Source: an uncultured Planctomycetota bacterium
Lineage (GTDB): Bacteria > Planctomycetota > Planctomycetia > Isosphaerales > Isosphaeraceae
NCBI GenBank assembly: GCA_963818975.1
Contig: CAWFUI010000015.1
Span: 230,979-294,978 of the forward strand
Direction of reading: 5' to 3'
DNA: 64,000 nucleotides
Below are positions 13,142 through 40,502 of the stretch, piece after piece; the stretch's first letter is position 1; every line of letters begins with the position of its first letter. The notes under the pieces are model-generated. The model saw only the letters and a program-made list of their open reading frames with translations, was not told where the DNA came from and ran no database searches. A program made the position numbers and the translations under genes.

Positions 13142-13344
13142 TGGCGTCTCCCTGGACGATCGGCCGCGGAGCAAAGCTTCCGCTTAACGATTCGTCGATC
13201 ATCAGCCTATAGGTCAGGGTACCCCGCAACAAGCCGAGACTGTACGACCTGCCTCTCGAATCAGACTCGAGTCGCCAAGCGCAGCCCCTGGTTCCTCCCA
13301 GGCGGTTGTTGACGAAGCCCGCCGGGTTTGCCAAGACTACTTTC

Positions 13345-14178: not shown

Positions 14179-15056
14179 CCGCTTCGATACTGGACGGAAA
14201 GCTGCTGGCAGAGAGACTTCAGACCGAGATCGCGGCCGAGGCGCGGCGGCTGGCGGAGACCACGGGAGTCGTTCCAGGATTGGCGGCGGTGTTGGTCGGC
14301 GACGATCCCGCAAGCCAGGTCTACGTCCGCAATAAAGAGCGCGCCTGCAACAAGAACGGCTTCCACGCCAAAGTCGTGCGGCTGCCCATTGATACCACCG
14401 AACAGCAGGTATTGGGAGTCGTCGACGGTCTCAACGCCGACCCCAAGGTCCATGGGATTTTGGTTCAGCTCCCCCTGCCCTCTTCGATCCGCGCCCACAC
14501 AGTGATCGACCGGGTCGACCCCAGGAAGGACGTCGACGGTTTTCATCCCATAAACGCCGGCTTGCTAGCGACGGGCAGGCCCAGATTCGTCGCATGTACG
14601 CCACTTGGAATTCAGAAATTGTTGATGCATTATGGAATTGCCCTGCGAGGTTCCCGCGTGGTCGTGTTGGGCAGGTCGTCGACGGTCGGAACGCCCATGG
14701 CCCTGCTGCTCTTACAGAAAGGGGACGGCGGCGATGCAACCGTCACGGTCTGCCACAGCGCCACCAAGGATGTGGAAGAGGTTTCGAAGACCGCCGACGT
14801 CCTGATCGCCGCGATCGGCAAGCCCGAAATCGTCCGCGGCCCATGGATCAAGCCAGGCGCCGCGGTGGTCGACGTGGGAATCCATAAGCGAGACGATGGA
14901 TCGCTCTGCGGCGACGTCGCCTTCGAAGAAGTTCGCGAAAAAGCGTCCTGGATCAGTCCCGTCCCCGGCGGCGTCGGACCTCTGACGATCGCCATGCTTC
15001 TGGCAAACACTTTGAAATCCGCCGGTTTGATTTCTCGAGAGAACTTAAAAGCATGA
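14175..15056 (+). CDS. folD: bifunctional methylenetetrahydrofolate dehydrogenase/cyclohydrolase
   Basis: MTASILDGKLLAE...VGDDPASQVYVRNK...TPLGIQKLL...GRSSTVGTPMALLL...PVPGGVGPLTIAML. The ATGA overlap with the dapF stop suggests an operon. Confidence 0.9.
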   Translation: MTASILDGKLLAERLQTEIAAEARRLAETTGVVPGLAAVLVGDDPASQVYVRNKERACNKNGFHAKVVRLPIDTTEQQVLGVVDGLNADPKVHGILVQLPLPSSIRAHTVIDRVDPRKDVDGFHPINAGLLATGRPRFVACTPLGIQKLLMHYGIALRGSRVVVLGRSSTVGTPMALLLLQKGDGGDATVTVCHSATKDVEEVSKTADVLIAAIGKPEIVRGPWIKPGAAVVDVGIHKRDDGSLCGDVAFEEVREKASWISPVPGGVGPLTIAMLLANTLKSAGLISRENLKA

Positions 15057-18618: not shown

Positions 18619-18910
18619 GCTTCGTTCCGGACTTGGTTGGGTCGCCTTTTTCCGCCCACTATGGGGCGATTTCCGATCAGCCAGCATGATCGGACAAGCC
18701 AGGCCGGTCCAGCCCAGCACCGCCAACTCGACGCCCAGGACGGCTTTCGTCAACGAATTTCGGTGTAAGGAAGATTATCGGCGAGATTGCAAAAACGCTG
18801 GCGAAAGGGTTATGTTGGGGTCGATTCCGGTTCTATGAACCCGGTCGACCCGAACGGCATGGGCGCGACCCGGGCGGGTCTTTGTTTCGAGACGGAGCAG
18901 TGCGAACGAA

Positions 18911-21455: not shown

Positions 21456-23379
21456 ATGGCTTCTGGACGTTACGACGCCGATTCGATCACCGTATTGGAA
21501 GGCCTGGAGGCCGTTCGCAAACGGCCTGGGATGTACATTGGAGGCGTCGACAAGGAGGGTCTGCACCACCTGCTTTGGGAGATCGTCGACAACTCTGTCG
21601 ACGAGGTGATGAACGGCCACGCCTCGAGGATCGTCGTCTCGATTGCCAAGGACCATCGCGCAGCGACCATCTCCGACAACGGCCGAGGCATTCCTGTCGA
21701 CATTGTACCCAAGACAGGGCTTAGTGCACTCGAAGTGGTCTTCACCAAACTCCACGCCGGGGGCAAGTTCGATAACGACGCCTACAAGGTGGCCGGTGGA
21801 CTGCACGGAGTGGGCGCCAGCGTCGTCAACGCGCTCTCAAAAAGCCTCGAAGCCGTCGTCAGGCGCGACGGCCGCACCTACACCCAGCGTTACCGTCGCG
21901 GAAAACCCTTGGGCCCTATCGAAAAGGGCGAGCCCGCGCGGGGAACGGGCACCACGGTCACCTTCTCTCCAGACCCCGAGATCTTCCGAGAAGTCGCAAT
22001 TCGACGTATTGCTTATTGCCGAACGTCTGGATGTGAAAACGTACTTGAATAAAGGTTTGGTGATCCAGCTCGTCGACGAGAAGACCGGCCAGACGACCGA
22101 ATTCCAGCATGCGGGCGGCGTTGTCGACTATCTCGACTCGATCAATAAAGAACGGGACGACCAGCGCGTCTCCCCTGCCCCTTTCGTGCTCGAGCGCGAA
22201 GACTCCGATGAAGGGATCAAGCTCTCGCTTGCCTTGGCTTGGACCGAGTCGACCGACGAGGTGTTGAGGTCTTTCGTTAACACGATTCCCACGCGCGACG
22301 GCGGCACTCACGAACAGGGCCTGAGGGATGCAGTGGGCGCCGCGATCAAACGGTTCATGAGCCATCACGACGTCGTCAAAAAGGGCATGGAGATCAAGGG
22401 CGAGGACATTCGCGAAGGACTCACGGCTGTCCTTTCGATCTTTGTCCACGAACCTCAGTTTCAAGGACAGACCAAGGGCAGACTGAACAATCCGGAGGTC
22501 AAGGCCCTGGTCGATTCGATGGTCAGGCCCAGGCTCGAGGACTATCTGCTCAAGAACAAGAGCATTGGCGACGCGATTGCAGACCGCGTGATTCGTGCAG
22601 CCAAGGCTCGCGAGGCGAGCCGAGCCGCGGCGTCCCAGGTTCGCAGAAAGACGGCGATCAGCGGCAAGCTCAATTTGCCTGGGAAGCTGCACGACTGCGA
22701 TTCGACCGATCCGGAGATCTCGGAGCTCTTCATCGTCGAGGGAGACTCGGCGGGAGGCTCTGCAAAACAAGGACGCGACCGCGACGTCCAGGCCATCCTT
22801 CCGCTAAAGGGCAAGGTCTTGAATGCCGAGCAAGCTGGCAAGGCCAAGGTGCTCGACAACAAGGAACTGACCGATATCGTCAGCGCCCTGGGCTGTGGAA
22901 TGGACGACCAGTATGACGTTGGCAGACTGCGCTATGGGAAGGTCATTCTCCTGACCGACGCCGACAGCGACGGCCACCACATCGCCACGCTCTTATTGAC
23001 CTTCTTCTACCGGCATCTTCCCGGTCTCTTCGAAGGCGGGAAGGTCTACCTGGCATGTCCACCGCTTTACAAAATCAGCCATGGACAGGAAACCCACTGG
23101 GCAGCCGACGACGCCAACAAGGCGAGGATCCTCGACTCTCTGCCCAAAAACGCGAAACCGAACATCACCCGGTTCAAGGGTCTTGGCGAGATGCCCGCGA
23201 AGCTCTTGTTCGAGACGACCCTCGACCCCCGCAGACGAAAACTCTTGAGGGTGGTCGTCCCCGACGACGACCGCCCCTACACCGAGAGCACAGTCAGCGA
23301 CCTGATGGGCAAAGAACCCGAAGCCAGGTTCAAGTTCATCATGGAAGAGGCGTATACGGCCAAGGATATTGATATCTAA
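21456..23379 (+). CDS. type IIA DNA topoisomerase subunit B (GyrB/ParE family); frameshift near 21985
   Basis: [26 protein letters not shown] (GHKL ATPase), then in the second frame [29 protein letters not shown] (Toprim) and ...[10 protein letters not shown]. Confidence 0.85.
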
Positions 23380-23532: not shown

Positions 23533-25011
23533 TCATTCTTTCTTGAGAGTCAAATCAACGGTCTCTGCGGTTCCAGGCGCCAGTTTGACGGTCCGGACGG
23601 CCGCAGCATAGCCCTTGGCCGTTGCGGTAAACGTTGCGTACTCCTCGGGAACGAGCGAGACGGTCTGGAACTCGCCGTCGCCGCGAGCAACGAGGTCAAC
23701 TGCAGCCGCGTCGGCTGAGTATGTCGCGGAGCGTCCATAAACGCCCTTCACGACAAGCTGCTCGGGACTTCCTCCGTCGATCGTTCGGACGCGAATTGTG
23801 GCGACGGCGGATTGTTGGACGACGAACCAGAGGTCGCGTACATCCTCGGTCAGTTTGCCGAGGGGATAGGCCCTCGAGAGGACGGGCGGGAGGTCCTCTT
23901 CGACACCCAAAGGCATTCTGCCTGCCCGCACGGCTTGGGCGCTCAAGAGCTCGATCGTCGCGTCGGCAAGCTCTCGCGGGACGATCACCTCGACGCGAGC
24001 GTCGTGCTGAACAGTGCGAATCGTTTGCCAAGTCGTCGATCCAAGCGAACCCTTGATGATTACGCTGAGTGCCTGAGGAGGCAGTTCCGATTTGATCCTG
24101 GCTTCGACCACCACAGCCTGCGTTGGCTTGAGCTCGATCGAAGGCGTATTGGACTTTTCAATGACCTCGACTCGTTTGGCGAGGTAGATCTTGGAGGTCG
24201 CTTCGCCGCCAGTCTCGTTGGATACTGGGGTTGGTTTGACGTCGTACACGCCCTGGGCAAGGTTGGCGATTTCGAAGACGCCAGACTCGTTTGTGACTGC
24301 CGAGCCATAGTTCAGGACATAGATGTGCACGTCCTGAGATAGCGGTTGATGCTCAGTGCTCGAGCCATAGATCTCGCTCGCCACAACTTGCCTGTTGGCG
24401 ATGGGCCTCCCTTGCTCGTCCCTGAGCGTCCCTTTGATGGAATGTCCTTGAGGCAAGACGATCGAGCCTGCGTCTCCGCTGGGCGCCTCGACAAACGCTC
24501 TGACCTTATTGGCCAAGCCCTTCGATAGATCGTTCGACCCAACAACAAGCATATAGCGATCGCCCGCGGCGGTTGGACCGAACTCGAACGTGCCATCAGG
24601 ATTGGCGTATCGGAAGCCGAGCTGACTGTATCCGGATTTGCCTTTGCTCGCGACAAAGACATGTACGTTCGCATTAGGTACCGGCTTGCCAGCGGAATCG
24701 ACGACCGTTCCCCGAGGGCCATGGGTCTCTTCCATGACGAGATGCTGGTAGAACGGCTGGTCGCCGCGCTTGCGGTCCTCGATGATCTTGCCAATCGTCT
24801 CGCCTTGAACGACCGCTCGGCCGTAGCTGGTTGCGTGCGTCATTTCGAGGCGCAAGACATTCTTGGGATTTCCCGTGACCGAGGGAGGCAGCGTAAAGAC
24901 AAACTCGCCTTTTTCGTTCGAGAAGGCCGAGGAGTTGCCGTCGCCGCCGCGGATCGGCTTGAGCACGTCGGGATGGAGAACGTCCGGCCTCTCGAACGCA
25001 AAGACTTTCAC
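23533..25011 (-). CDS. secreted carboxypeptidase-regulatory-like domain (CarbopepD_reg/Cna-B-like beta-sandwich) repeat protein
   Basis: 492 aa with repeated GxVxDxxGxPxxxAxV beta-sandwich modules (e.g. GTVVDSAGKPVPNANVHVF and GTLRDEQGRPIANRQVV). It is the last gene of the blaI and blaR1 operon. Confidence 0.6.
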   Translation of the reverse strand: MKVFAFERPDVLHPDVLKPIRGGDGNSSAFSNEKGEFVFTLPPSVTGNPKNVLRLEMTHATSYGRAVVQGETIGKIIEDRKRGDQPFYQHLVMEETHGPRGTVVDSAGKPVPNANVHVFVASKGKSGYSQLGFRYANPDGTFEFGPTAAGDRYMLVVGSNDLSKGLANKVRAFVEAPSGDAGSIVLPQGHSIKGTLRDEQGRPIANRQVVASEIYGSSTEHQPLSQDVHIYVLNYGSAVTNESGVFEIANLAQGVYDVKPTPVSNETGGEATSKIYLAKRVEVIEKSNTPSIELKPTQAVVVEARIKSELPPQALSVIIKGSLGSTTWQTIRTVQHDARVEVIVPRELADATIELLSAQAVRAGRMPLGVEEDLPPVLSRAYPLGKLTEDVRDLWFVVQQSAVATIRVRTIDGGSPEQLVVKGVYGRSATYSADAAAVDLVARGDGEFQTVSLVPEEYATFTATAKGYAAAVRTVKLAPGTAETVDLTLKKE

Positions 25012-26746
25012 CTCGGCGCCTTTGACGGGCTTGCCTGTCGACTTGTCGAGCAGCTTGCCAACCAGGTCCAGAGTGGCGCGGGGACGAGCTCGAAGCGCTC
25101 AAAGAACGCGGGCTTGCCGTACACGCGGTCCTGCAAGACCTGAATGAACGGTACCGTCACGTCCTCGCGCGGAATGTAGTCGGTGGCGTGCCAAACGTCG
25201 ATCCGCATCAGTCCATTGTTCCACGACTGCAACTGGCCAAACTTCGCCGGTATCGAGAAGGCATACTTGCCGTGCTTGTCGGTCTTGGTTTGCGATTGGG
25301 CCAAGGTCGGCCGGACCTGCGGGGTGCTCGTCGCGCAGCCCATGGGGTTGTAAGGGAACATCGAGACGACCACCTGGGCGTCCGCGACGGGCAGACCAGT
25401 CGCCTTGTCGACAATGACTCCTTCGAACTGCATCGGCGCCGGCTCGGGCTCTGGTTTCGCCAAGTCGTTTCCATTGACAACGACGTTCGTGTTGATCAGT
25501 GGGTCCGACGCCGGCGTCGGCGGCGGCGGAGCAAGAATACCCGCCATGGCTGGCTTCGAGGTCGATCGCTCGAGCGAGACCTGCTTCGATAGGACCGTGG
25601 ACGCCGGCCTCGGCGTCGTCGGAGGGGCAATCTGCTGGGCAATCGTCTTGCCAGCGGGCAGCAAGCTCGAGCCCACCACCAAGACGAAAGCGGATGCAAA
25701 AGCCGCCAGGCCCCAGGCCCGCGGACATCGCTTCTCGATAACAAAATTGGAAGAAATAATCATGTGAACTCTCCTAGAAAGATGAGACGGATAAGAACCG
25801 AGCCCCAGAGGGGCCAAGGCGCGGACGGGATCCAAACGTCGGGCGGCGGCGACCAAAAACGCCGCGTAATCCTCCGCCGACGCCGCGAGCTCGGTTGCAC
25901 GCGCGTCGGCAATAAAGTCTTGATAAAGGCGAATCCGGTCGCGGACGATCCATGCCAGCGGGTTGTACCAGAAGGCGAGCTGGGCGATATTCGCGAGGTG
26001 CCAGGTCCAGACGTCGTTGTGCTCGACGTGCGACCATTCGTGCGCAGCGCCAGTGCTACGGATCGCTCGCTTTCGTTCTCCCAGCTCCGCGGCAAGACGA
26101 TCGTGGGCCTGCGAAGACCGATGGTGATCGGCAGCCGTATTGCGTCGTTCTCGAGCAAGAGGGCCTTGTCGGTCGCCCCACTCGCGATCGATCTCAGGGC
26201 AGTCGAGATCCTCCCTTCGCATTTCCTGCTTCTCTTGCGGATACGCTCCAAGCCGGCCAAACCAAAGAGACGCACGCAAGCGAGAACGAACAGGCCCGAA
26301 AGATAAACCACTGTCAAACGCTTGGAAGGAAGACTTGAACGCGACCGGGTCTTGCCGATCGAACCAACCGAATCGAACTTCGGTTCACGCGGCGTGGGAT
26401 TCATCGCCAGGTCATCGGAGGAGCTATATGTATGAAAATGTTCGGTTCCATCGCAATGGCAGATGTACCTTCGTTGGGCGCTGGGCGCGTCGCCCGCCTT
26501 TTTTGGGGAACCTTGCGGATTGACGAATCCTGGGCGTAGGGTTGCAAGGATGCTCGCCTGAACCGCGGAAGACGCAAGCGCCAGCAATGGGCAGGCGATC
26601 AAGCCCGCCGCGGCGAGCTCGAGGATCCTCAACTTGCGCGCGGGCTGACGAAAGAGATGAGTCGCCGCGAGCCCCGAGAGACAAATGACGAAACCCACGA
26701 TCGCTGTGTTAGCCAGCCAGCTCTCTGGATCGAAGAAGTGGATCAT
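25008..26746 (-). CDS. BlaR1/MecR1-like peptidase M56 family signal transducer (membrane); apparent frameshift near 26080
   Basis: N-terminal TM region MIHFFDPESWLANTAIVGFVICLSGLAATHLF. In the second frame, HEWSHVEHNDVWTWHLANIAQLAFWYNPLAWIVRD gives the HExxH plus WxNPL M56 signature. Confidence 0.8.
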
Positions 26747-26747
26747 C

Positions 26748-27158
26748 TCACTGGCCCCCCTTGCCTTTTGAAGTCGCTCGCGAGGTTTTCTTTTTCTTGG
26801 CTTCCGCGACCAGTTCCTCGAGTTTGTCGAGCTCTTGGGTGGAGACGCTGCGCGACGACAGCAGCGAAAGGACGAGCTGATCCACAGCGCCATCGAAGAC
26901 TCTGTCCAGGAACCTCGAGCTCACGCGATCTCGGCTGTAGAGCGGGCGATAATAGAACGTCCTTCCCTCGTGTCGATGGGCGACCAATCCTTTCTCGTCC
27001 ATGATCCTCAGGAGCGTCTGGACCGTATTGAAAGCAAGCTCGCCGTTGGGGCACATGCGTTCGCGCACCTGACGCACGCTCGACTCGCCCAATTCCCAGA
27101 GCACCTTCAAGATTTCGAGCTCGCGCTCGCTGGGCGTCGTCTCCGACACTGGAACCAC
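26748..27158 (-). CDS. BlaI/MecI/CopY family transcriptional repressor
   Basis: SERELEILKVLWELGESSVRQVRERM...FNTVQTLLRIMDEKGLVAHRHEGRTFYYRP (winged helix of penicillinase-repressor family). It sits immediately upstream of the M56 gene. Confidence 0.85.
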   Translation of the reverse strand: MVPVSETTPSERELEILKVLWELGESSVRQVRERMCPNGELAFNTVQTLLRIMDEKGLVAHRHEGRTFYYRPLYSRDRVSSRFLDRVFDGAVDQLVLSLLSSRSVSTQELDKLEELVAEAKKKKTSRATSKGKGGQ

Positions 27159-27369
27159 CCTTTCTCTTGATTCACTTGGCTATACCTAACTTACTAGGTT
27201 AGGTTATCGTGCCGTTCGATTGAAGTCAAGCGACGGAACTAAAAAGAACGCGACGGGCGAAATGGAGGTCGATCAGTTCTTTTCGAGAACGTGCGCCTAG
27301 AATAGTATTGGTCGCGGCTATTTGCTCGGAATCGGCGACGTCTCGAATGCAATCGGCTGACGTTCCGCG

Positions 27370-29061
27370 ATGGCAACCTGGAGTTTGAGCATGCCTGTGG
27401 CAAAATCGGCGCCCGCGAGAGTCGAAACCTCGGTTACTACGGTTGGTCAATATGTGATTGATCGTTTGATGGAGCTTGGGGTCAAGCACGTTTTTGGGAT
27501 CCCTGGGGACTACGTTCTGGGGCTTTATAAGCTGCTGGAGGAGAGCCCCATCGATGTAGTGGGCATGACTCGAGAGGACTGCGCCGGCTTCGCGGCGGAT
27601 GCGTATGCGCGCGTGCACGGCCTCGGCTGCGTGTGCGTGACGTATTGCGTGGGCGGCCTCTCCCTTTGCAATAGCATCGCCGGGGCGTACGCCGAGAAGT
27701 CTCCGGTTGTGGTTCTCTCCGGGTCTCCTGGAGTGTCCGAACGCGCCAGGAATCCGCTCTTGCACCACAAGGTGCGAGATTTTTCGACCCAGCTCGAGGT
27801 CTTCGAAAAAATAACCGTCGCCCAAACGGTGATCGACGACCCAGCTCGCGCCTTTTCGGAAATCGATCGCGTGCTCGGCGCCGCCTTGAGGTACAAGAGG
27901 CCCGTTTATATCGAATTCCCACGCGATCAGGTGTTGATCGAGCAACCTGTATTGGCCGGCAAATCGATCGGCATTCCCCCTTCGGACGCAGACGCTCTGC
28001 GCGAGAGCCTGGACGAAGCCTGCGCCATGCTCTCGTCGGCCAAACGGCCCGTCATTCTGGCCGACGTCGAGATCCACCGCTTCGGCCTTCAAGAAGAGCT
28101 CGTGGCTCTGGCGGAGGAGATGGGAATCCCGATCGCCACCACCATCCTCGGTAAGAGCGTCATATCCGAATCCCACCCACTCTTCGTGGGGGTTTACGAA
28201 GGCGCGATGTGCAGGGAAGAGGTGACTCGCTGCGTCGAGGAGGCCGACTGCCTGCTGATGCTTGGCTGTTTCCTCTCGGACATCAACATGGGGATTTTCA
28301 CCGCCCAGATCGATCCATCGAGATGCATCAACGCCACAAGCGAAGATCTGCAAATTCGGCATCACCATTATCACGACGTGAGGTTGGACGATTTCATCTC
28401 CGGTCTCAGGCTTCGCAAACCCAAGACCGTGCGAAATCTGCCTCCGCCAAGGCCGGCCGCCGACGCGCTCTGGAAGGCCAAGAACGGGCAAAAGGTCACT
28501 TCCGCACGCTTGTTCGAGCGGTTGAACCTTTTTTTGGCCGATCAGATGGTCGTCATCGCCGACATCGGAGATTCGCTTTTTGGATCGGTCGACCTCTCGA
28601 CTTCCGGGCACACCGAGTTCATAAGCCCCGCGTACTATACGTCTATGGGCTTTGCGGTTCCGGCGGCGGTCGGAGTGGGCGCCGCCCGCCCCGACGCCAG
28701 GGCTCTGGTCATCGTCGGCGACGGCGCGTTCCAGATGACCGGACTCGAGCTTTCCACAATTGCTCGCATGAAGATGAATCCAATCGTTATCGTCATGAAC
28801 AACCGAGGCTATACCACCGAACGTTTCCTGCTGGAAGGCGATTACAACGACATCCATGTATGGAACTATCATAAAATGCCAGAGCTCTTGGGCGTTGGAT
28901 TGGGGCTCGAGGTTCGCACCGAGCAGGAGCTCGACGCCGCTCTCGAGAAGGCTTTGGCGAACGTCGAGAGCTACAGTCTGCTGAACATCCACCTCGACCC
29001 GATGGACCGGAGCCCCGCGCTCGAGCGGTTGGCCCAGCGGCTTTCGAAGGTGATTCGCTAG
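27370..29061 (+). CDS. thiamine-diphosphate-dependent 2-keto-acid decarboxylase (indolepyruvate/phenylpyruvate/pyruvate decarboxylase family)
   Basis: [11 protein letters not shown] (Pyr domain) and GDSLFGS...[62 protein letters not shown] (TPP-binding GDG-X24-NN motif). About 563 aa, typical of IPDC/PDC. Confidence 0.85.
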
Positions 29062-29082
29062 AGTTTGGGCGAAGGAGGTTCG

Positions 29083-29820
29083 ATGAGCGGCCTCTTGATC
29101 AGCGTCAGAGACGCGGGAGAAGCCTTGACGGCCCTGCGAGGAGGGGCCGACGTGATCGACGTCAAGGAACCCGCGAGGGGCGCCCTCGGGCGCGCCGACG
29201 CAGGCGTTTGGACACTCGTGCGCCAGGCGATTGGTCCAGACGCGCCGATGAGCGCTGCGCTGGGCGAATTGACTGAATGGCTCAACCCACTGGACGACAT
29301 CGAAAAGATCAAAGCCGAGCTTGGTTCGGTTGCCTTTTGCAAGCTTGGCTTGGCTGGCTGCTTGTTTAAAAAATGGCGGCAAGAGTGGCGCGGATTGAGA
29401 CAATCGCTCCCCGCGACCTTGAAGTGGGTGGCGGTCGCGTATGTAGACCACGCGGCGGCCCACGCGCCTGACCCACGCGAGGTGGTCGACGAGGCGAACC
29501 GATCGGCGGATATCGCGGGCGTGCTGTTCGACACGTTCGATAAGGCTTCGGGCTCGATCGACCGAGCAAGCCACATGCTGTTCGAATGCGCCCGCCTTGC
29601 GAAGAGCGCGGGGCGGTTCGTCGTCGCCGCCGGCTCCTTGAACAAGCAATTGATCGAACGGTTCGACGCCTTCGAGCCCGATCTCTTCGCCGTGCGAGCC
29701 GCGGCGTGCGAAGCCGGGGGCCGGGAGGGCGCCGTCCAGATCCACCGCGTTCGTGAATTGAAACAAGCAGTGCTGGCGCGAGAAGGTGTTGTGATACAAA
29801 GTAAAAATGAATACGTTTAA
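29083..29820 (+). CDS. DUF556 / MfnB-like protein ((5-formylfuran-3-yl)methyl phosphate synthase family, class I aldolase fold)
   Basis: LLISVRDAGEALTALRGGADVIDVKEPARGALG...KLGLAG...VAVAYVD...VLFDTFDKASGSI...VAAGSL...FAVRAAACEAGGREGAV follows the archaeal MfnB pattern (LLVSP...GGADIIDVKNP.EGSLG...KVGLYG...VAAGYAD...LDTA.KDG...ALAGSI...GVRGAAC..GDR.G.I). An alternative start is at 29065. Confidence 0.7.
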   Translation: MSGLLISVRDAGEALTALRGGADVIDVKEPARGALGRADAGVWTLVRQAIGPDAPMSAALGELTEWLNPLDDIEKIKAELGSVAFCKLGLAGCLFKKWRQEWRGLRQSLPATLKWVAVAYVDHAAAHAPDPREVVDEANRSADIAGVLFDTFDKASGSIDRASHMLFECARLAKSAGRFVVAAGSLNKQLIERFDAFEPDLFAVRAAACEAGGREGAVQIHRVRELKQAVLAREGVVIQSKNEYV

Positions 29821-29838
29821 ATAACGAGTAATAGAATA

Positions 29839-30345
29839 ATGATGGACGAGAGCCCTGTTCCAATCACCCTGCTCGAGCGCCGTACGATCGAGGCTGGGAT
29901 CGCGGCTCCGCTCATCCGCGCGTTTGCCGAGGAAGTCGGCCGGGAAAAAGCACTCGAGATCGTCAGAGGCGTGGTTTCGAAACTCGCACGCGAAAGCGGC
30001 GCCGAGCTCGCCGCATCGGTTGGCGAAGCGACTCTCCAGGCCTTCGCGAAGACCCTCGGCCGTTGGAGCGAGGGAGGAGCCCTCGAGATCGACGTGCTCG
30101 AGGGCAACGAAAACGAGCTCTCGTTCAACGTCACCCGCTGTATGTATGCGGAAATGTACAAGGTGCTTGGCCTTGCCGACCTTGGCTCTTCGCTCTCCTG
30201 CGTTCGCGATTTTGAGCTCGCTCGAGGATTTAACGCCGATATCACGCTCGCACGCACGCAAACAATAATGCAAGGATCGAGTCATTGCGACTTTCGGTTC
30301 AAGCTCGAGAAGACCAAGTGCGACCAAGAGATAAGTAAATCCTGA
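29839..30345 (+). CDS. ATC-hydrolase-like (L-2-amino-thiazoline-4-carboxylate hydrolase family, PF14196-like) small protein
   Basis: 168 aa: ...NVTRCMYAEMYKVLGLADLGSSLSCVRDFELARGFNADITLARTQTIMQGSSHCDFRF. The conserved Cys pattern and C-terminal CDFRF fit my recollection of this family, so this is a tentative family-level call. Confidence 0.5.
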   Translation: MMDESPVPITLLERRTIEAGIAAPLIRAFAEEVGREKALEIVRGVVSKLARESGAELAASVGEATLQAFAKTLGRWSEGGALEIDVLEGNENELSFNVTRCMYAEMYKVLGLADLGSSLSCVRDFELARGFNADITLARTQTIMQGSSHCDFRFKLEKTKCDQEISKS

Positions 30346-30444
30346 ATAAAACGGTCTGGCGAGCGAATCTTCTACTCGACCGAGGGCCGTTGGCCTCGTA
30401 TGGCTGCGGCGGTCCGGGTTTGTGTTATAGAAGAGGTCCCTTGA

Positions 30445-32713
30445 ATGGGCGCAGCATTGAGCGGCTTTCTGAGTGGGGGATTGGTTTTCGCGGAGTTTGA
30501 AGGCATGGGGACGGGTGTGAGCGTCCTTGTCTTTGCGGCGGTCGGAGTTTTGGCGGCGGCGGTTCTTTCCGGCGTCCGCTACATTCCCAACAACAAAGTG
30601 GGCATCCTCGAGAAGCTTTGGTCTTCCAAGGGGTCGGTGCCGGAAGGAAGGCTGATTGCACTTGCCGGGGAGGCGGGTTACCAGGCCGACGTCCTTCGCG
30701 GCGGCCTGCATTTCGGGCTTTGGTTCTGGCAGTTTCGGGTTCACAAGGTTTCGCTTGTGAGCATTGGCCAAGGCAAAGTCGCCTACGTTTACGCCCGCGA
30801 CGGCGAACCGCTTTCGACCACGCAAACGCTTGGCCACTATGTCGAATCGAATAATTTTCAAGATGCACGCACGTTTTTGATTGGCGAGCGCGAGTCGGGC
30901 GATTCCGAACCGAGCTTTGGCCAGCGAGGTCGACAGAGGAAGATCCTTCGCGAAGGCGTCTATGCGATCAATCTGCGCTTTTCGTCGTGATTACCGAGGA
31001 CGTCGTCTTCCGGCTGAATTTTCAGGGTCAGAAGGAGCTCGAGACTTTGGTCGCGTGGCAGAAGACGCTGCGCGAGATCGACGGCTTTAGCCCGGTGGTG
31101 ATTGGCCCTCCGATCGCGGCGCCGGACCCTTTGAACCCAGGCAAGGAGACGACGGTCGACAGCATCGGCATCGTGACAGTGCACGACGGACCTTCCTTGG
31201 GCCGGGGGAAATCATCGCGCCATCGGTTGGCGCCGATCGATCGGATAAGAATTACCACAACAATTTCCAGGATCCCGAGGCGTTCTTGATGGCTGGGGGC
31301 CGACGAGGCAGGCAGTATCTCTCGTTGACGGACGGCACATACTTCATCAATCGTTGGTTCGCCACGATCGAGGAGATTCCCAAGACCGTCGTGCCGATCG
31401 GCTACGTTGGCGTGGTGATCAGCTACTACGGACAGGCGGGTCACGACCTCTCGGGAGAGGCTTTCCGTCACGGCGAGCGAGTCGCCGAGGGGGAGCGAGG
31501 CGTTTGGGAACGTCCTTTGGGTCCAGGCAAATATCCGTTCAACACGTACGCGGGCAATATCATCCTGGTCCCGACCACGAACTTCGTGCTTCACTGGGTG
31601 ACCGGAAGGTCGGAATCCCACCGATACGACGAAAGCCTGCGATCGATCGACCTGGTGACTCGCGACGCCTACGAGCCTTCTCTGCCGCTTTCGGTCGTCG
31701 TGCACATCGACTACCAGAAGGCGCCCAGCGTGATCCAAAGGTTTGGAGACGTGAAAAAGCTGATCACACAAACGCTTGATCCTATGTTGAGCGCATACTT
31801 TCGGGACGTCGCTCACAAGAAAACGATGCTCGAGCTGCTGCACGAGCGGGACAAGATTCAGCAGGAGTCTCGCGACGAGCTGAGGCGGAAGTTCCACGAT
31901 TTCGACATCGAGTGCGTCGACGTTCTGATCGGCAAGCCCGACACGGCGGCTGCCGGCGACAAGATCGAGATCCTGCTCGAGCAGTTGCGTCTGCGGCAGC
32001 TTTCGATCGAGCAGATCGAGACGTTCGGGCGGCAACAAGCGGCTGCGGAGAAGCTGATGCAATTGAACCACGCGCAGGCTCAGGCTGCGATGCAGACGCA
32101 GCTTACGAACTCTCGCGTGCAGGTTCAGATTGCCGAAAACAAAGGGGACGCGGCCTTGGCCTACGCCCGCAAGGAAGCCGAGAAGACGGTTGTTACAGCG
32201 CAGGCCGACAGCCAGCAACGCATTCTCGCAGGCCGAGGCGAGGCATCCAGACTTCTTCAAGTCGGGCTCTCCGAGGCTTCGGTCATGCTCCGCAAAATCC
32301 AGTCGATGGGCGACTCGCGTCTCTACGCCCTGGCGCAGACCGCGGCGAACCTTTCGAAGAGCACGCAGCCCTTGGTTCCCGAGCGCGTCTTCATGGCTGG
32401 CGGCGGGGGCGGGGGCAACGGCGACGGCGAATCGTTGGGCGCCAACGGATTGATGGGCGCCTTGATTGGCCTCTTGGTCGCCGAGAAGTCGGGCTTTCAT
32501 CCCAACGGAGAACACGGAAGCGAAGCCCTTTCGAGCCTCGAGGCTTACGCCGAAAAGATGACGCGAGAGGTGCTCGACGGCGCCCCAACCCAGGCGATCG
32601 GCGACGCCGAGGACTGCGCTCTGAGCCCAGCCTCGAACGCGGCCGCCTTGGCAACCGAGGAGAGAAAGGAACTTCAAACGATCGCCTCTGGCCCGAACGA
32701 GGAAGGCGCCTGA
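30445..32713 (+). CDS. flotillin / SPFH (band-7, YqiK-like) family membrane protein; two apparent 1-nt frameshifts (~30978, ~31200)
   Basis: N-terminal TM, then VRYIPNNKVGILEKLW. After the frame slips the sequence reads ...EGVYAINLRF | ITEDVVFRLNFQGQKELETLVAWQKTLREIDGFSPVVIG | ...RSDKNYHNNFQDPEAFLMAGGRRGRQYLSLTDGTYFINRWFATIEEIPKTVVPIGYVGVV..., with a long coiled-coil and Gly-rich C-terminus. Confidence 0.8.
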
Positions 32714-32813: not shown

Positions 32814-35800
32814 TCAGCTCGAATACGTCCAGGTCTGGATCGCCTGGGTCGAAGCGAACCCGCCGGTCGACCCAGTGAAGCCAACGTACGCGACCGAGCC
32901 GCCGATGATCGAACTCAAGTTCAGGCCTGCGTAAATATGTGTAAATGTCGCCTTTGTGACGTCGTCGACCACGGTCTCGGTCAGGTTTGATCCGTTGTAG
33001 ACGAGAGTGGCGGTCATCAGGTCGCCGGAGAGCAAGTTGACGTACCCCGTCATGTCGACCGCGGGAGTCGTGGGCGAGGCGCCGTTGGTGTAGAGCCCCG
33101 TCGAGTCCGACCCCTCTCCAGCGTCGTTGAAAGTATCGAACTTGATCGCGACGCTGTTGCCGACGCCCTGGTAGCCGAGCCCCGCGCCGATGGCGCAAGG
33201 GCGGTATTCCCCGAGCCCTGGAGTGTGAAGGTGAAGCCGTCGCCCAGCGTCCCCGTCCCGCTGATCTGAAAATTAAACGTGGATGTGAATGTGCTGATGG
33301 GTTCTTCCACCGTGGTGAAGACGCTTCGAGCTTCGAGAGTGTTGCCGTCGGTCAATACCAGGTTCGACCCGCTGACGGCGGCGCCTCCGTTCAATGTGAG
33401 AACTCCCAAAGCGCCCGAGGCGAACCCGTTGGAGAAATTGACGAAGGGAGGCGTCGTGGCGTTTGCCATGTTCGAGGGGTTCGAGAGGCCCGACGCGTCT
33501 TGCGCCAGGACGACGAAGTCATACGCGACTCCCGACGAAAGTCCAGCGCCTGGAACGTCGACGAGCCTGCTGGAGCGAACCCGATGGTTGCGAAGTGGAT
33601 CCCGTCGGTCGAGTCCTCGACGAGGTAACCGGTGGCGAGGTTCGGTTTCACGTCGTTAGAGGTCCAGGCCAGGTCGATTTCGGTCGGCGAGACCGCCGTC
33701 GCCGTGAGGTTCGATGGTGCGTTGGGCAGGTTCGAGAGCGTCCAGTTCTGGACGACCTGGGTCGACTTGAAACCGCCAGTCGACGCGGTAAACCCGACGT
33801 AGGCCGAGGTCCCGCCAACGATCGATGGAATGTTAATTCCAGTGTACGTATGATTGAACGTTGATTTCGTGACCAAGTCGACGAGCGTTTCGACAAGATT
33901 CGCTCCGTCGTAGGAGATCGTAGCCGAGATCGGGTCTCCCGAGTGGAGATTGACCGAGCCGGTCATGTCGATCGCTGGGGTCGTGGGCGCCGCGCCATTG
34001 ATGAAAACGCCGGTCGAGTCGCTGCCTTCTCCGGCGTTGTTGTAGAGGTCGAATTTGATCGCGACGCTCTTGGCGATTCCCTGGTAGCCCAGTCCGCCGC
34101 CGTTCGCTCCGAGAGCTGTATTGCCAGAGCCTTGGATCGTGAAGGTCAAACCGTCGCCTTGGTTTCCAGAGCCGGTGACGAGGAACGTGAACGTCGTCGT
34201 GAACGTCGAGATTCCTATGGGCGCGGTGGTGAAGACGCTGCGGGATTCGAGGATCTGACCGTTGGTGAGAACCAGGTTCGAGCCCGAGACTGAGGCGCCT
34301 CCGTTGAAGGTCAAGCTACCAGCCGAACCGGTCGCGAAGCTGTTGAAGTTGACTCCGCCGTTGCTGTTCGTGGAGGCCTGAGCGACGTTGGAATACCCGG
34401 AGTACCCGATGGAATCATGTGCTCGTACTCGGAACTCGTAAGACGTTCCGGCAGCCAATCCGGCGACGGAGTAACCCACTGCCCCCGCCGGAGCAACGGC
34501 GATCTGGGTGAAGTGGACTCCGTCGGTCGATTCCTCGACGGCGTAGCCGTCGGCCACATTGGGGGCAACGTCGTTGTCGGTCCACGATAGGTTGATTTGG
34601 CTAGTCGAAAACGCGGACGCCGCGAGGTTGGTTGGCGCCGTGGGCGCGGCCGTTGGCCCGGCTGGGAGCGTCGCGGTATCCACCTCGGTGAACGCCGAAG
34701 GTCCGGAGGCGTTGTACGCCAGGATCCTGTAGTCGTACGTCGTGCTCGGAAGAAGGTTCGTGTCGGTATACGTGTCGGTGCTGGGCGCGACGGAGACGTC
34801 CGCGGGCAGCGCGACCAAGAGCGAGAACGCTCCTCCTGAGACGCTTCGATAGATCTGGAATCCGTCTTCGTTGTTGGCGTTGTCGGTCCACGTAAGACTG
34901 ATCGAGTTCGATGTGATCGAGGCCGCGGCCGCGTTGGTCGGGGCGATCGTTGCGACCGGCGTGCTGACCCAGACTTCGCCCGAGTCTTCGCTTTCTCCAC
35001 CAGGGCTCGTCGCAGTCACTTCGTAGAAATAGATTTCGCCCTGTGAAAGGTTAACGTTGCTGTATTCGTCGTTACTGGCGCCTAGCGTGGCGTAGAGGTA
35101 GAAATCCTCGTCGCTGGACGAGGCTCGATAGATGTTGTATCCGGTCGCTCCAGCCACGGGGTTCCACGTGATCATGGCCGTCATCGGAACGCTGGCCGTG
35201 GAGGTTGCGTTGTATCCCTGGAGCACGGCAGCCACGTTTTGGGGAGCTGATGGCGCTCCGGACGTGGCTGAACCTGGCGTGTACGTCCAGCTCTTGATTA
35301 CTTGCGTAGCGGTCAACGTGCTGTCCGACGCGGTGAAGCCGACGTACGCCGTGTTGCCGCCGACAAGAGAAGGAATGTTCACCCCTGTGTAGGTTTGAGT
35401 AAAAACCTGGCCGGTGATCGAATCGGCCAGCGCTTCGATAAGATTCGATCCGTCATAGGAGATTGTCGCGTAAATCGGGTGGCCGGAGTTCAGGTCGATC
35501 GAGCCGGAAAGGTCGACCGAAGGCACCGTGGCGCGGCGCCGTTGATGTAGAGTCCGGTCGAGTCGTTGCCTTCGGTTACGTCGTCGTAGGTGTCGAATTT
35601 GATCGCAAGGCTGTTGGTTATACCCTGATAGCCAAGGCCGGCGCTGCCGAGCCCAAGCGCGCATTGCCGACTCCCTGGATCGTGAACGTAAAGCCGTCCG
35701 CAAGTGGGAGGGCGCCAGTGATCTGGAATTCGAAAGTCGTTGAGAACACGTTGACGTTCGTGGACGTCGTCGAGAACACGCTCCGCGTTTCGTTGGGTTG

Positions 35801-38800
35801 GCCGTCCGTTAGGACGAGATTCGACCCCGTGACGCCCGCGCCGCCGTTGAACGAGAGTACGCCGGACGTGCCGGTCGCGAAACCCGTCGGGAAGTTGATC
35901 GGGACGGAGGGCGTTGCCGAAGCGACGACGTTCGTGGGGTTCGAAACTCCCGATGCGTCTTGGGCCTGGACGATGAAGTAGTAGTTCGTGGCGGGCTGGA
36001 GCCCAACGACGTTGTAGGCGGTCGACCCCGGGGGCCCGACTGCGATCTGATTGAAATGGACTCCGTCGGTCGATTCCTTGATCGAATAGCCCGTCGCCAG
36101 GTTTGGCGCGACGTCGTTGTCGGTCCAGGCGAGGTCGATTTCCGTCGGCGAGGCTGGGTTGGCGGAAAGGTTCGTCGCGGGGTTCGGGAGGTCCGAGAAC
36201 GTCCAGGTCTTGACGACCTGGGTGGCCTTGAACCCTCCCGTGGAACCCGTGAAACCTACAAAACCGAGCGTTCCACCGAGGAGGGACGGTATGTTGATGC
36301 CAGTATATGTATGTGTGAACGTCTGATTGGTAGCGAGATCGGTCAGCGTTTCGACCAGGTTGGAACCGTTGTAAGCGATCGTGGCCGACATGAGATCGCC
36401 CGCGTGGAGGTTCACGACGCCTGTCATGTCGATCGCCGGCGTTGTGGGCAGAGCTCCGTTGGTGAAGACTCCCGTCGAGTCGTTGCCTTCCCCTGCGTTG
36501 CTGTAAAGGTCGAACTTGACTGCGAGGCTCTTGGCGATTCCTTGGGAGCCGAGCCCAGCTCCGTTGGCGCCCAGAGCGGTGTTTGCCGTGTTTTCAACGG
36601 TAAAGGTGAACCCGTCGCCTTGCGTTTGCGAGCCCGTGATGAGGAACGTAAACGTTGTAGTGAATGTCGAAATCCCGACGGGGGCGGTGGTAAACACGCT
36701 GCGAGACTCGAGCGGTTGCCCGTCGGTGAGAACGAGGTTCGAGCCCGACGTGGTTGCTCCGCCGTTGAAGGTCAAGATTCCAGACGTACCCGAACCGAAG
36801 CCCGACGAGAAATTCATCGAACTGCTGTTCGTCGACGCCGAGGCCACGTTCGAATAACTCGAGTAGCCCATTGTGTCGTGGGCCCGAACTCGGAAGTCGT
36901 AGAGCGTCGAGGCCAAGAGCCCGACGACGGAGTAGCTCGAGGATCCCGACGGCAAGAGAACGATTTGCGTGAAATTGACTCCGTCGGTCGATTCCTCGAC
37001 GGCGTAGCTGTCGGCGAGGTTCGGCGAGACGTCGTTGTCGGTCCACGACAAGTTGATCTGACTGCTCGAGAACGTCGTCGCCGAAAGCGCCGATGGCGCC
37101 GCCGGCGGGGCGCTTGCTGGAACTTGAGGCGTGTAGGCCGTCACTCCCGTGAAGTCTGAATATCCAGCTAAATTAAAGGCCTGGATATGATAGTCGTATC
37201 GTGTGTTGGGGGTCAACCCCGAGTCGGTGTACGTGTCGGTGCTGGGCGCGGGGTTCAGGTCGGCGGGCAGCGAGACGAGCAGGGAGAAGGCGCCGTTGTT
37301 AACGCTTCTGAAGATCTGGAACCCTGCTTCGTTGTTGGCGTTGTCGGTCCAGGTGAGCGTGATCGACGTCGGCGTAATATTGACGGGCTGACCGTTCGAG
37401 GGGGTGGGGGCTAGAGCCGGCGTGGTGATCGAGGTCTCGGTCGAGAAGGCGCCTTGCCCGACCTGATTGACTCCCGCCACTTCGTAATAGTAGGTCGATT
37501 CGGTCGCAAGGCCTGTATCGTAGAACGCGGGCGTCGTTGTCGTGGCGACCTGTTGGTAGTGCAAATCGTCGCCCAGGCTGCGCTCGACGATGTAGCTCTG
37601 CGCGTCTGGAACAGTGCTCCAGGTGACCGTGGCGCCCAGGGGCACCGGCGTGGTTGACCCGGCGGTGTAGCCGGTGACGAATGCTTGGAGATTCTGTGGC
37701 ACAGCGGGCGGAGAGGCCGTCGCCCCCGTATTGACCGTATAGACCCATGACTCGATCGCCTGGGTCGCTTTTACGCCGCCCGAGGCGCCGGTGAAGCCGA
37801 CATACCCGTTGGAGCTGCCAACGAGCGACGCCAGGTTGATCCCGGTGTAACTCGTATTGAACGACGCGTTGGTCACTGTGTCGGTGATCGATTCGTAGAT
37901 CGTCGATCCATCGTACGAAATGGTCGCGGACATGAGATCGCCGCTGTGCAAATTGATCGAAGAACTCAGGTCGACGAAGGGGACGGTTGGGGCGGCTCCG
38001 TTTTCGTACAGCCCCGTAGAGTCGTTGCCTTCCCCAGCGTTGTTGTAGAGGTCGAATTTTACGGCGAGGCTGTTGTTGATGCCTTGATATCCAAGTCCGC
38101 CGCCGGTAGACCCCACTGACGTTGGAGAGACTCCCTGGACTGTGAATGTGAACCCATCGCCCTGAGTCCCAGGTCCGGTGATCTGGAACGTAAACGTGGT
38201 CGAAAACTCATTGATTGGAACGGTTGAAGTCGAGAACACGCTTCTCGTCTCGGCGGCGTTTCCATTGGTCAAGATCAGGGAGCTGCCGCTGATCGACGCG
38301 CCGCCGTTGAACGTAAGCGGACCTTGCGCCTGCTGTCGAATCCGTTGGGGAAGTTGATCAGGTTCTGGGCCCCTCCCGCGGGGAGGGTGGTTGTGCTGGC
38401 GATATTCGTATAGCTGGAAAAACCAACGGCGTCGTGGGCTCGGACTCGGAAGTAATAAGTGGAATCCGGCTGAAGGTTGCCGACGTAATACGCGGAGGCG
38501 CCGACGGCGACTGTGGCGATCTGCGAGAAGTTCACGCCGTCGGTGGAGTCTTCAATCGCGTAGTAGTCCGCGAGGTTGGGCTGGACGTCGTTGTCGGTCC
38601 AGTAAAGATTGATCTGAGAGCTTGAAGCGGCAGTCGCCGTGAGGTTGGAGGGCGGCAACGGCGGGCTCGTCGGCGAGTTGATCAATCCATAGATGACCAG
38701 GAAGTTGTTCGGGTTGCCGGTTCCGGACGCGACGTAGACGTGGCCGTTGGCGACGGTCGGCACCTCGAACTTGACCGCCTGCCCCAACGAGTCTCGGTTT

Positions 38801-40502
38801 CCAGGCGCCTGTGCGCTGGTGTAGAGCTCTAGGTTGTAACCATTGGTGGAATATGCTCGGAGTTGGCTCGATCCTCGATCGACGTCCCAGACCACACCCT
38901 GACCGCTGCCGTCGACGGTGATGACGGGGGTGGATCCCGCGAACGTGAACGTGTCGTTGGAGCGAGTGGTTGGCGACGAGCTCATAACCGCATTGGAGAT
39001 CGAGAACGTTTTGGCGTTGCCTCCGTATCCCTCGACGTAGTAGATCGTGTTGTTGTAATAGGCCGCCGTATCGAGAGAGGAGCTCAAGGCCCCGCCGACT
39101 TCCTGGACGATGTTGTCGGTCAGGCCAAACTTGCCCATGTTGTCGCGGTTGACGAGATAGAGCGTGCCGGTTTTGCCGCCGCCAACGATCAGGTTGGGAA
39201 TGGCCGTACTGCCGGCCGAGGCGGGCAGGATCAAAGGCGCTCCGGAGCCGAGGTCCAGGTCGTGCGCGGTCAAGTAGAGTTGGTTGTAAGGAGTGAAGTA
39301 GTCGACGACTGTAAGTCCCCAGCCGTTGATATTCTCATTCGTGGCGCTTGTTGTGGGATCAATCGCGAGCTTGACGAACGAATCTCCGTAATCGCCTTGG
39401 GCGGGAAATCCCGCGGCGTTGAGCCCGGTGACGGGTCCTGGCGCGGGGGAGGTTGGGTTGGTTGCGGAGCTCGTGCCGTTGTTGCCGTCGAACGTTCCGT
39501 TTCCCGACTCGAAGTAAAAGTACGTCCCGTCGAACGCAATCGAGCCGCCCGCCTCCCAGATCCCCCCCGCGGTGCCGTTGGGGCTGTCGTTGAATACGGC
39601 GGTCAAGGCGAGGTTCGACGCGCTAAAGCCGAGGACCCAGCCGTGGTAAGGGCCGTTGTCCCCGTGCGAAGCGTACGGTATGTAAACGACGTTGTTCACC
39701 AGCGTCAGCGCCCGCGCTGGCTTTCCCGAAGCGCGTTGAACTGGTCCACGTTTTTGCCAGTGTTGTTGTACGGGTCCTTCACGTAACCTGAACCAGTTCC
39801 ATAAACATAAATCTGTGTGTTATTTTGATTGATATTCGTGCCGTTCGTATCCCCTGGAGCGTCGGTGGTGTCGCCGATCATGTGCGGGCTTATCGCGTTG
39901 GCGCCGTTGGAGATGTTCAGCGCGAACAGAAATTGGACGTAGTGCGCAGTCGTCCCCACCATTTGTTTCGTGGCGGCCACGACGTACATGGTGTTGTTTG
40001 CAGGGTCGATCACCGGGGTGCCGGTTATGCCGATCTCGACGGTGATGTCGCCCGACGCGACGTCGGTTGATGGGACGGTCGTGACCGACGTGGCGCCTGG
40101 GATTCCGGTGTCGAACAGGCTGCGCTGCCACAAGAGCTTGCCGGAATTGGCGTCGAAGGCGTAGACGCTGTCGTGTTCGGTCGCCGCGAAGACCACGTCG
40201 TGAACGCCCTGGTAGAGGCCCGTGGTGATGTTGACCCCAGTCTTCACAAGCGGTTCGGCGTAGATCTGGCCGTCGACCTGTGATTGGGCGACCTTGCCAA
40301 AATCCTGCTGATTGACCGTCGTCGGCGTCAAAGCCGTTTCCGTCGCGTCCACGCCGGAGCTTGCCACGTTGTAGCGATAAGAAAGCACGTCGGTTGCAAG
40401 CAGACGTCGCGTTTCCAGTTCTTCAAGACGCGGCAGCCGCGCGTGAGCCTTGCCGCGCCCGGAGAATCGACCAGGCCTTGGATGCTTACGGTTCGGTTTC
40501 AT
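32814..40502 (-). CDS. giant secreted repeat protein (~2,560 aa): N-terminal signal plus PQQ-like beta-propeller, then about five tandem [fibronectin type III + L-type (legume-like) lectin] modules; multiple apparent frameshifts
   Basis: N-terminus MKPNRKHPRPGRFSGRGKAHARLPRLEELETRRLLA, with DSVYAFDANSGKLLWQRSL (PQQ repeat). FN3 repeat example: PSNLTATAASSSQINLYWTDNDVQPNLADYYAIEDSTDGVNF...YYFRVRAHD. Lectin repeat example: FTFQITGPGTQGDGFTFTVQG...GGGLGYQGINNSLAVKFDLYNNAGEGNDSTG...VDLSSSINLHSGDLMSATISYDGS. The gene is assembled from six track ORFs in different frames (39705..40502, 38275..39699, 35618..38272, 33391..35703, 33050..33469 and 32814..33053). Confidence 0.75.

Follow-up and report, generated by a model that had tools for sequence, protein, structure and literature searches.

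A tightly packed trio of planctomycete genes for a thiamine pyrophosphate-dependent decarboxylase, an MfnB homologue and an ATC_hydrolase-family protein

Our analysis of a 64-kb stretch of planctomycete DNA (contig CAWFUI010000015.1; the whole stretch is called "the window" below, and positions are counted from its first nucleotide) focused on the forward-strand segment 27370-30345, which is occupied by three intact co-directional open reading frames (ORFs). These encode a thiamine pyrophosphate (TPP)-dependent 2-keto-acid decarboxylase, a homologue of MfnB, the synthase of 4-(hydroxymethyl)-2-furancarboxaldehyde phosphate (4-HFC-P), and a small protein of the ATC_hydrolase family (PF14196), which we call "ATC-like". 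All three genes add to known families, and what is peculiar about them, their arrangement, is local; we put the chances at somewhat better than even that three genes, each conserved in its own right, have come to lie side by side in this lineage alone, that they are probably co-transcribed and that their functions are canonical and separate. The three genes are as follows:

27370..29061, + strand: TPP-dependent 2-keto-acid decarboxylase of the phenylpyruvate/indolepyruvate family; 563 amino acids (aa) from ATG 27370; Pfam TPP_enzyme_N/M/C
29083..29820, + strand: MfnB homologue (PF04476/UPF0264, 4-HFC-P synthase family); 245 aa; Pfam match, fold and Shine-Dalgarno sequence
29839..30345, + strand: small protein of the ATC_hydrolase family (PF14196); 168 aa; V4R/MopR-like fold, C101/C121/C150

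Exact counterparts of all three are present as public gene calls on one contig (P0241, P0001 and P0121). An earlier, sequence-only reading of this DNA had placed three same-strand genes at these coordinates and had assigned them to these families; the ORFs and the Pfam matches agree with the former, and the TPP_enzyme_N/M/C, PF04476 and PF14196 profile matches with the latter. Of the intergenic gaps of 3 and 18 nt that it gave, the 18 nt between the MfnB and ATC-like genes stands and the 3 nt does not. The ORF listing began the MfnB gene at TTG 29065, which is unlikely to be the start because public call P0001 begins at ATG 29083 (245 aa) and the Shine-Dalgarno sequence GAAGGAGG (29071-29078) lies 4 nt 5' of that ATG; the gap between the decarboxylase and MfnB genes is therefore 21 nt. 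The decarboxylase may itself start at ATG 27391, as in public call P0241 (556 aa). A scan for promoters and terminators gave no sigma-70-like promoter or convincing terminator inside the cluster, with counts at the level of shuffled sequence and hence uninformative, and no known RNA family or riboswitch scored above threshold in 26500-31000.

Distribution of the arrangement

The arrangement was found only in the window, in the Logan contig L006 and in a 1.46-kb Joint Genome Institute contig, L169 (about 75% DNA identity), the last of which has the MfnB-ATC part. In L006 the three genes lie together with a 17-nt gap followed by an ATGA overlap of the MfnB and ATC-like genes; in L169 the MfnB and ATC-like genes overlap or are 11 nt apart, and the same flotillin-like gene lies downstream as in the window. 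Between L006 and the window gene order is shared for at least six genes (BlaR1-like to flotillin-like), and since this block runs past the trio it speaks for general collinearity and not for selection on the trio. Elsewhere the genes are apart. In Tundrisphaera lichenicola those for the decarboxylase, MfnB and the ATC-like protein are dispersed at 2.02, 1.15 and 7.17 Mb, respectively, and the MfnB gene is solitary in L001, L002 and L005 (the Tundrisphaera locus). No mfn or myf neighbour of MfnB was found in the window, L001, L002, L005 or L006. The sequence-only reading had noted that the layout is not that of the canonical mfnA-F genes, and indeed there is no other mfn gene in the cluster or in the whole window.

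Two wider scans gave the same picture. When genome contigs were scanned with a profile of the ATC-like alignment and the 80 best loci were searched by tblastn with the decarboxylase and MfnB, neither was present within 10 kb of the ATC-like gene (0/80). Metagenome contigs scanned with a profile of the decarboxylase alignment, with tblastn searches for MfnB and the ATC-like protein at the 80 best loci, had neither of these within 10 kb of the decarboxylase gene (again 0/80). Unbiased clustering of the neighbours recovered lineage-specific partners only, such as a thiolase and a Zn-ribbon protein in Dehalococcoidia and a MotA/ExbB-like protein in Isosphaeraceae. Synteny of the trio in related genomes, on which the sequence-only reading had staked its proposal of a joint pathway, is thus seen in the two nearest relatives found, L006 and, for the MfnB-ATC part, L169, and is absent from Tundrisphaera and from the 160 further loci.

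The three genes have diverged at different rates. In every genome pair compared the order of amino acid identity is decarboxylase, then ATC-like protein, then MfnB; the values are 88, 77 and 66%, respectively, between two Isosphaeraceae, and 79, 62 and 42% between the window and L006.

The three protein families

The decarboxylase has the three-domain TPP architecture of the 2nxw/IPDC (indolepyruvate decarboxylase) family, with Pfam expectation (E) values of 8e-29, 6e-26 and 2e-26 for TPP_enzyme_N, TPP_enzyme_M and TPP_enzyme_C. The top NCBIfam model, the indolepyruvate/phenylpyruvate decarboxylase equivalog TIGR03394, gives 445 bits against a cut-off of 554.5, and TIGR03393 gives 330 bits, below its cut-off of 946. 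As both equivalog cut-offs are missed, membership of the family holds and assignment of a specific substrate is not licensed. The nearest solved relative is the phenylpyruvate decarboxylase of Azospirillum brasilense (2nxw, E 1.4e-107), and the next are indolepyruvate, branched-chain and pyruvate decarboxylases (the last abbreviated PDC). Residues D47, E69, H132-H133 and E484 and the GDG...NN motif (G450-D451-G452 ... N477-N478) are invariant in 15 homologues, and the catalytic residues and the motif align with those of 2nxw and the PDC-type protein ANC27; we take the catalytic roles of the Glu, Asp, His-His and Glu to be those established for PDC and IPDC. The Asp/His-His/Glu set and the motif are shared with the 2nxw/IPDC family, although with respect to 2nxw itself the active-site Glu of the window protein aligns instead with the PDC/IPDC position. 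The position of the Trp that closes the pocket in ANC27 is occupied by Leu403, and 2nxw also has Leu there; this replacement suggests a roomy substrate pocket. Aryl-pyruvate preference is hinted at by this Leu and by the identity of the nearest solved relative.

Homologues of the decarboxylase are 70-79% identical within the Planctomycetota and 54-61% identical in many other metagenomic contigs of unknown taxonomy. They form a distinct, strongly conserved and slowly evolving clade, and in most genomes the gene stands alone. In Isosphaeraceae-like loci a gene for a GGACT/AIG2-like gamma-glutamyl cyclotransferase (PF06094) lies directly upstream of the orthologous decarboxylase gene (L007 7574-8035, L008 7619-8041, L090 9532-9942 and L092 473-808). 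It overlaps the start of the decarboxylase gene in L007 and L008 and is fused to it in P0285 (709 aa). This pairing is more specific to the decarboxylase than are its neighbours in the window, and among the loci scanned it appeared in Isosphaeraceae-like ones only; no GGACT homologue is present in the window.

The sequence-only reading had likened the middle protein to archaeal MfnB, and this likeness is borne out by a strong match to the PF04476 (4HFCP_synth) profile (150.1 bits against a cut-off of 22.4, E 1e-43, profile positions 1-227 of 228) and by the retention of the catalytic residues. With the curated NCBIfam models the scores fall below the cut-offs: 69.7 and 69.5 bits for NF002573 and NF002575 ((5-formylfuran-3-yl)methyl phosphate synthase; cut-offs 341 and 304), and 84-85 bits for two "hypothetical protein" PRK02227 models (cut-offs 286-297). 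By these scores the planctomycete MfnB clade, which lies outside all four curated NCBIfam PRK02227 equivalogs, has diverged from the rest of the family. A sequence search against the PDB matched Methanocaldococcus jannaschii MJ1099 (4rc1) with E 1.7e-14. In an alignment of MJ1099 with 25 planctomycete-type homologues (the window protein included), D26, K28, K87, D150 and K154 are invariant and correspond to MJ1099 D25, K27, K85, D151 and K155; MfnB needs two Lys and two Asp, and Lys27 is the Schiff-base residue (PMC6604932). The AlphaFold2 (AF2) model of the window protein, with a predicted local distance difference test score (pLDDT) of 91.7, is a TIM barrel whose best Foldseek match is again 4rc1 (template-modelling score (TM) 0.78, E 4.5e-16). 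The top six Foldseek matches are all to 4rc1 and 4u9p (E 4.5e-16 to 2.7e-14, TM 0.74-0.81), and the next family, CutC, follows at E 2e-8. The window protein, about 27-28% identical to MJ1099, thus shares with it and with Orf22 of Methylorubrum extorquens the Pfam family, the TIM-barrel fold and both essential Lys and Asp residues. Unlike the gene for proteobacterial Orf22, which clusters with mfnE and mfnF in a set whose listed genes include neither a TPP decarboxylase nor an ATC-like gene, it is not beside mfnE/mfnF homologues (PMC8141765).

The window MfnB is at most 49% identical to other planctomycete MfnBs. This divergence, along with the tight packing of the genes, could be taken to mean that the trio makes a different furan or heterocycle, as the sequence-only reading had also proposed; for example, the enamine intermediate of the TPP enzyme could be joined by carboligation to the 4-HFC-P aldehyde, and the ATC-like protein could tailor the product as a hydrolase or cyclase. 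Chemically there is some basis for this, as PDC-family enzymes catalyse carboligations and the 4-HFC-P aldehyde is reactive. We nevertheless regard it as very improbable. MfnB divergence is general (66% identity where the decarboxylases are 88% identical), and the best matches of the window protein are solitary planctomycete MfnBs. Since MfnB evolves fast everywhere, its low identity is a property of the family and does not mark the copy out as a special paralogue. The window protein has canonical catalytic residues, no other genes for tailoring, transport or regulation of the sort usual in metabolite clusters were found nearby in the window, and the arrangement is not conserved in the 160 further loci. 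Where MfnB is solitary it has other neighbours: an aldehyde dehydrogenase gene converges on it and overlaps its 3' end in the Isosphaeraceae-like loci L001 (8731-10257, - strand) and L002 (8676-10220, - strand), both of which also have a YjbQ gene a few kb from MfnB, an arrangement that is absent in Tundrisphaera (L005).

The ATC-like protein matches the PF14196 ATC_hydrolase profile over its full length (122 bits against a cut-off of 28.1, E 4e-35, profile positions 1-145 of 145) and has no match in NCBIfam. Its residues C101, C121 and C150 are invariant in 22 homologous sequences. The AF2 model (pLDDT 85) most resembles the phenol-sensor domains of MopR/PoxR (5kbh, 5kbe and 5frw) and DmpR (6iy8) in Foldseek (TM 0.5-0.57), and behind these Bet3 and H-NOX. 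The ATC hydrolase, V4R and HNOB domains have been reported to be akin, with a three-Cys cluster common to V4R and ATC hydrolase (PMC5847659), and the window protein agrees with this in having a fold and a Cys cluster like those of the V4R/MopR-PoxR domains. The three-Cys site is probably metal-binding. Unlike MopR, PoxR and DmpR, the ATC-like protein is stand-alone, without a DNA-binding or AAA+ output domain, and it is only 13-19% identical to them.

This subfamily is widespread. Identity to homologues is 60-83% within Planctomycetota and 46-58% in other phyla, with members in Dehalococcoidia/SAR202, Desulfarculia, Acidobacteriota, Verrucomicrobia, Methylomirabilota, Actinomycetota and Nitrosocosmicus. 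In loci L009-L088, which range from Planctomycetota to other phyla at 46-68% identity, the gene almost always stands on its own; 14 loci from Dehalococcoidia have a thiolase gene immediately 5' of it. A library of 1.84 billion proteins contains 2,562 cluster representatives of the family at E <=0.001 and 186 at E <=1e-30. Pfam searches of the long matches revealed rare fusions to NUDIX (P0396, P0434), His_Phos_1 (P0368) and Fer2_3 (P0390) domains, and among the 1.84 billion cluster representatives there was no fusion to TPP or PF04476 domains. The family takes its name from AtcB of Pseudomonas sp. BS, with which the window protein shares the full-length PF14196 match. The partners of AtcB in the conversion of 2-aminothiazoline-4-carboxylate (ATC) to cysteine are encoded by atcA/atcC-type genes. 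Unlike AtcB, the window protein is without such neighbours and gives no sign of thiazoline hydrolysis: no amidohydrolase- or racemase-type partner lies beside the gene in the window, and there is no recurrent partner in the 80 related loci. The trio as an ATC-to-cysteine pathway was rejected for this absence of pathway partners.

Upstream regulators, an antisense ORF and the window

Several other features lie beside or opposite the trio:

23533-26893, - strand: frameshifted BlaR1-like M56 gene, beside the BlaI-like gene
26748..27158, - strand: BlaI/MecI-type repressor (Penicillinase_R, by Pfam), divergent from the trio; context only
27185..27203: palindrome CCTAACTTACTAGGTTAGG, an inverted repeat between the BlaI-like gene and the decarboxylase gene
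27226..30861, - strand: 1,211-aa antisense ORF, not a gene; no Pfam match, GC fraction lower at the third codon position (GC3) than at the first (GC1)

The same divergent BlaI-BlaR pair lies upstream of the trio in L006. No other part of the intergenic region is as well conserved between the window and L006 as the 19-bp palindrome, CCTAAC(T/C)TA-N-TAGGTTAGG (5693-5711 in L006); it occurs once in the window, where none is expected by chance, and is probably a BlaI-family operator. The trio could accordingly be a stress- or signal-controlled unit under the divergent BlaI-like repressor and BlaR1-like sensor protease, acting through a shared palindrome, and such control would be compatible with any of the other readings of the trio. 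The retention of the regulator pair and palindrome in both loci, while the remaining intergenic DNA has diverged, is in its favour. We consider it decidedly unlikely, however: the palindrome is much nearer to the start of the blaI-like gene (about 26 nt) than to that of the decarboxylase gene (about 165-185 nt), so simple blaI-blaR autoregulation is the plainer reading; the comparison covers two loci, and the BlaR-like gene is frameshifted in the window.

The sequence-only reading dismissed the 1,211-aa antisense ORF as an artefact of GC-rich sequence, and we agree. A Pfam search of it gave no family match, and its GC3 of 0.62 is lower than its GC1 of 0.70, whereas the three sense genes have GC3 of 0.69-0.73 and GC1 of 0.62-0.67; the absent match and this antisense-type codon pattern rule it out as a gene. 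Long antisense ORFs are present opposite the decarboxylase gene in 80 of 83 loci and opposite the ATC-like gene in 64 of 80, and because similar ORFs recur in most related loci they must be a by-product of the GC-rich coding strand. In all-against-all BLAST comparisons (loci L009-L168) these recurrent ORFs group as "conserved" families. Such mimicry calls for caution in ORF-based gene calling in GC-rich genomes.

The window as a whole is typically planctomycete, with DUF1559, PSD1/PSCyt2 and DUF1501 genes and giant lectin/fn3 and WD40 proteins; these genes, and best homologues in Planctomycetota/Isosphaeraceae, uphold the planctomycete origin that the sequence-only reading proposed. The 64 kb contain no fae, mch, mtd, fhc or other mfn gene (including mfnD, mfnE and mfnF) and no aminotransferase gene. 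Their sole C1-metabolism gene is for FolD (methylene-tetrahydrofolate dehydrogenase/cyclohydrolase; 14106-15056, + strand), which is folate-linked and not tetrahydromethanopterin (H4MPT)-linked. As listed, it overlaps the gene for diaminopimelate epimerase (13306-14178, + strand) by 73 nt, but its Pfam match begins at residue 29, so the true FolD start is probably further downstream.

A number of window genes are split into two or three ORFs each, adjacent or overlapping, in different frames (4700-6864, - strand; 16804-18753, - strand; 21456-23379, + strand; 23533-26893, - strand; 30445-32713, + strand). They are those for Lon protease, GTP-dependent phosphoenolpyruvate carboxykinase, a GyrB/ParE-like protein without its ATPase part, the BlaR1-like M56 protein and the flotillin/SPFH-like protein. 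The BlaR1-like and flotillin-like genes are single intact ORFs in L006, whose alignments to the window run through three frames. The splits suggest indel errors, possibly introduced by the assembly of long reads, or else pseudogenes; no such break affects the three focal genes. In addition, consecutive ORFs of 770, 884 and 474 aa with legume-lectin and fibronectin type III domains (33391-39699, - strand) may be fragments that frameshifts have made of a single giant surface protein, and consecutive WD40-repeat ORFs of 241, 996 and 447 aa, in an array of nearly 5 kb (55782-60671, + strand), may be a single split gene.

Separate or joint functions

If the three proteins act separately, as we are inclined to think, the MfnB homologue would condense two molecules of glyceraldehyde-3-phosphate to 4-HFC-P via a Schiff base on K28 (the equivalent of Lys27), the first step toward the furan of a methylofuran/methanofuran-type cofactor. 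Such a cofactor would serve the formyltransferase/hydrolase complex when formaldehyde is oxidized by the H4MPT-linked route; C1 transfer linked to H4MPT/methanofuran is encoded in planctomycetes (PMC5020050). The decarboxylase would convert a bulky 2-keto acid to its aldehyde, and the ATC-like protein would be a small V4R/MopR-fold protein with a probable metal-binding three-Cys site, its gene normally standing alone. Of all this, the families, catalytic residues, folds, close spacing and distribution of the arrangement are observed, whereas the activities of the enzymes, co-transcription and the separateness of the functions are inferred. Only the mfnB step is shared between the window and the canonical mfnA-F genes or the orf22-orf21-orf9 sets with myfA/myfB/orf17, and TPP decarboxylases and PF14196 proteins are not members of the described methanofuran/methylofuran sets (PMC8141765).

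Several points weigh against separate functions. The layout of the trio, including the start/stop overlap of the MfnB and ATC-like genes, persists between genomes as distant as the window and L006 (42, 62 and 79% identity for MfnB, the ATC-like protein and the decarboxylase), and this persistence could reflect selection for co-expression. The context of MfnB outside the lineage is represented by three loci. The ATC-like fold resembles phenol-binding sensors and the kin of the decarboxylase act on aryl-pyruvate, both of which would fit a phenolic, tyramine-type intermediate. Finally, some bacteria that make methylofuran-tyramine, among them Methylophilus methylotrophus, Hyphomicrobium zavarzinii and Burkholderia sp. 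Leaf177, have no MfnA (PMC8141765), so tyramine must somewhere be reached by another route.

These points lead to the alternative raised by the sequence-only reading, in which the decarboxylase stands in for the pyridoxal phosphate (PLP)-dependent MfnA. The three genes would then work together to build the core of a cofactor of the methylofuran-tyramine type. MfnB would make 4-HFC-P, 4-hydroxyphenylpyruvate would be decarboxylated to 4-hydroxyphenylacetaldehyde by the TPP enzyme, an MfnC-like aminotransferase encoded elsewhere would turn the two aldehydes into 5-(aminomethyl)-3-furanmethanol phosphate (F1-P) and tyramine, and the ATC-like protein would bind or process the phenolic intermediate. 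The idea addresses a real gap, because MfnA is missing in three of six methylofuran-tyramine producers, whose describers suggest another precursor (PMC8141765), and these organisms need some other source of tyramine. The tight clustering in three related contigs (in L169 of the MfnB-ATC part), the nearness of the decarboxylase to phenylpyruvate decarboxylase with Leu at the pocket-closing Trp position, and the match of the ATC-like fold to the phenol-binding MopR/PoxR domains all favour it; the methanofuran core has gamma-glutamyl-tyramine, which makes the GGACT-decarboxylase overlap and fusion in Isosphaeraceae-like loci suggestive, though no more than that. The aryl-pyruvate affinity, the phenol-sensor fold and this overlap and fusion are compatible with the idea.

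We nevertheless find such a module rather unlikely. Its genes are together in none of the 160 loci outside one lineage and are dispersed in Tundrisphaera, and the block conserved in L006 reaches past them. Several phyla have ATC-like genes whose products are 46-58% identical and whose neighbours are unrelated, and an aminotransferase, mfnD, mfnE and mfnF were not found in the window. Because there is no conserved context outside one lineage, the role of MfnA substitute is an idea and not something that the context implies. Among the papers searched, nothing links methanofuran biosynthesis to a TPP aryl-pyruvate decarboxylase, and there was nothing relevant on planctomycete IPDC. We likewise think it unlikely, a shade more so, that the phenol arm of a methanofuran-type cofactor is made here without MfnA by transaminating the aldehyde from the TPP decarboxylase in the manner of 4-HFC-P, with the ATC-like protein handling the phenolic intermediate. 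If true, such an MfnA-free route would explain the source of tyramine in the producers that lack MfnA, a point left open in that study (PMC8141765).

Should the three genes cooperate after all, they would point to a missing step of bacterial methylofuran biosynthesis, the origin of tyramine without MfnA, and would offer a first way into the function of a PF14196 subfamily that is strongly conserved and spans several phyla. As the evidence stands, the adjacency seen here is lineage-specific and should not be taken as a pathway; what the locus offers is a planctomycete-type MfnB with intact catalytic residues that the curated NCBIfam equivalogs miss. The GGACT-decarboxylase fusion in Isosphaeraceae and the multi-phylum, three-Cys ATC-like protein are perhaps more informative leads than the trio itself.

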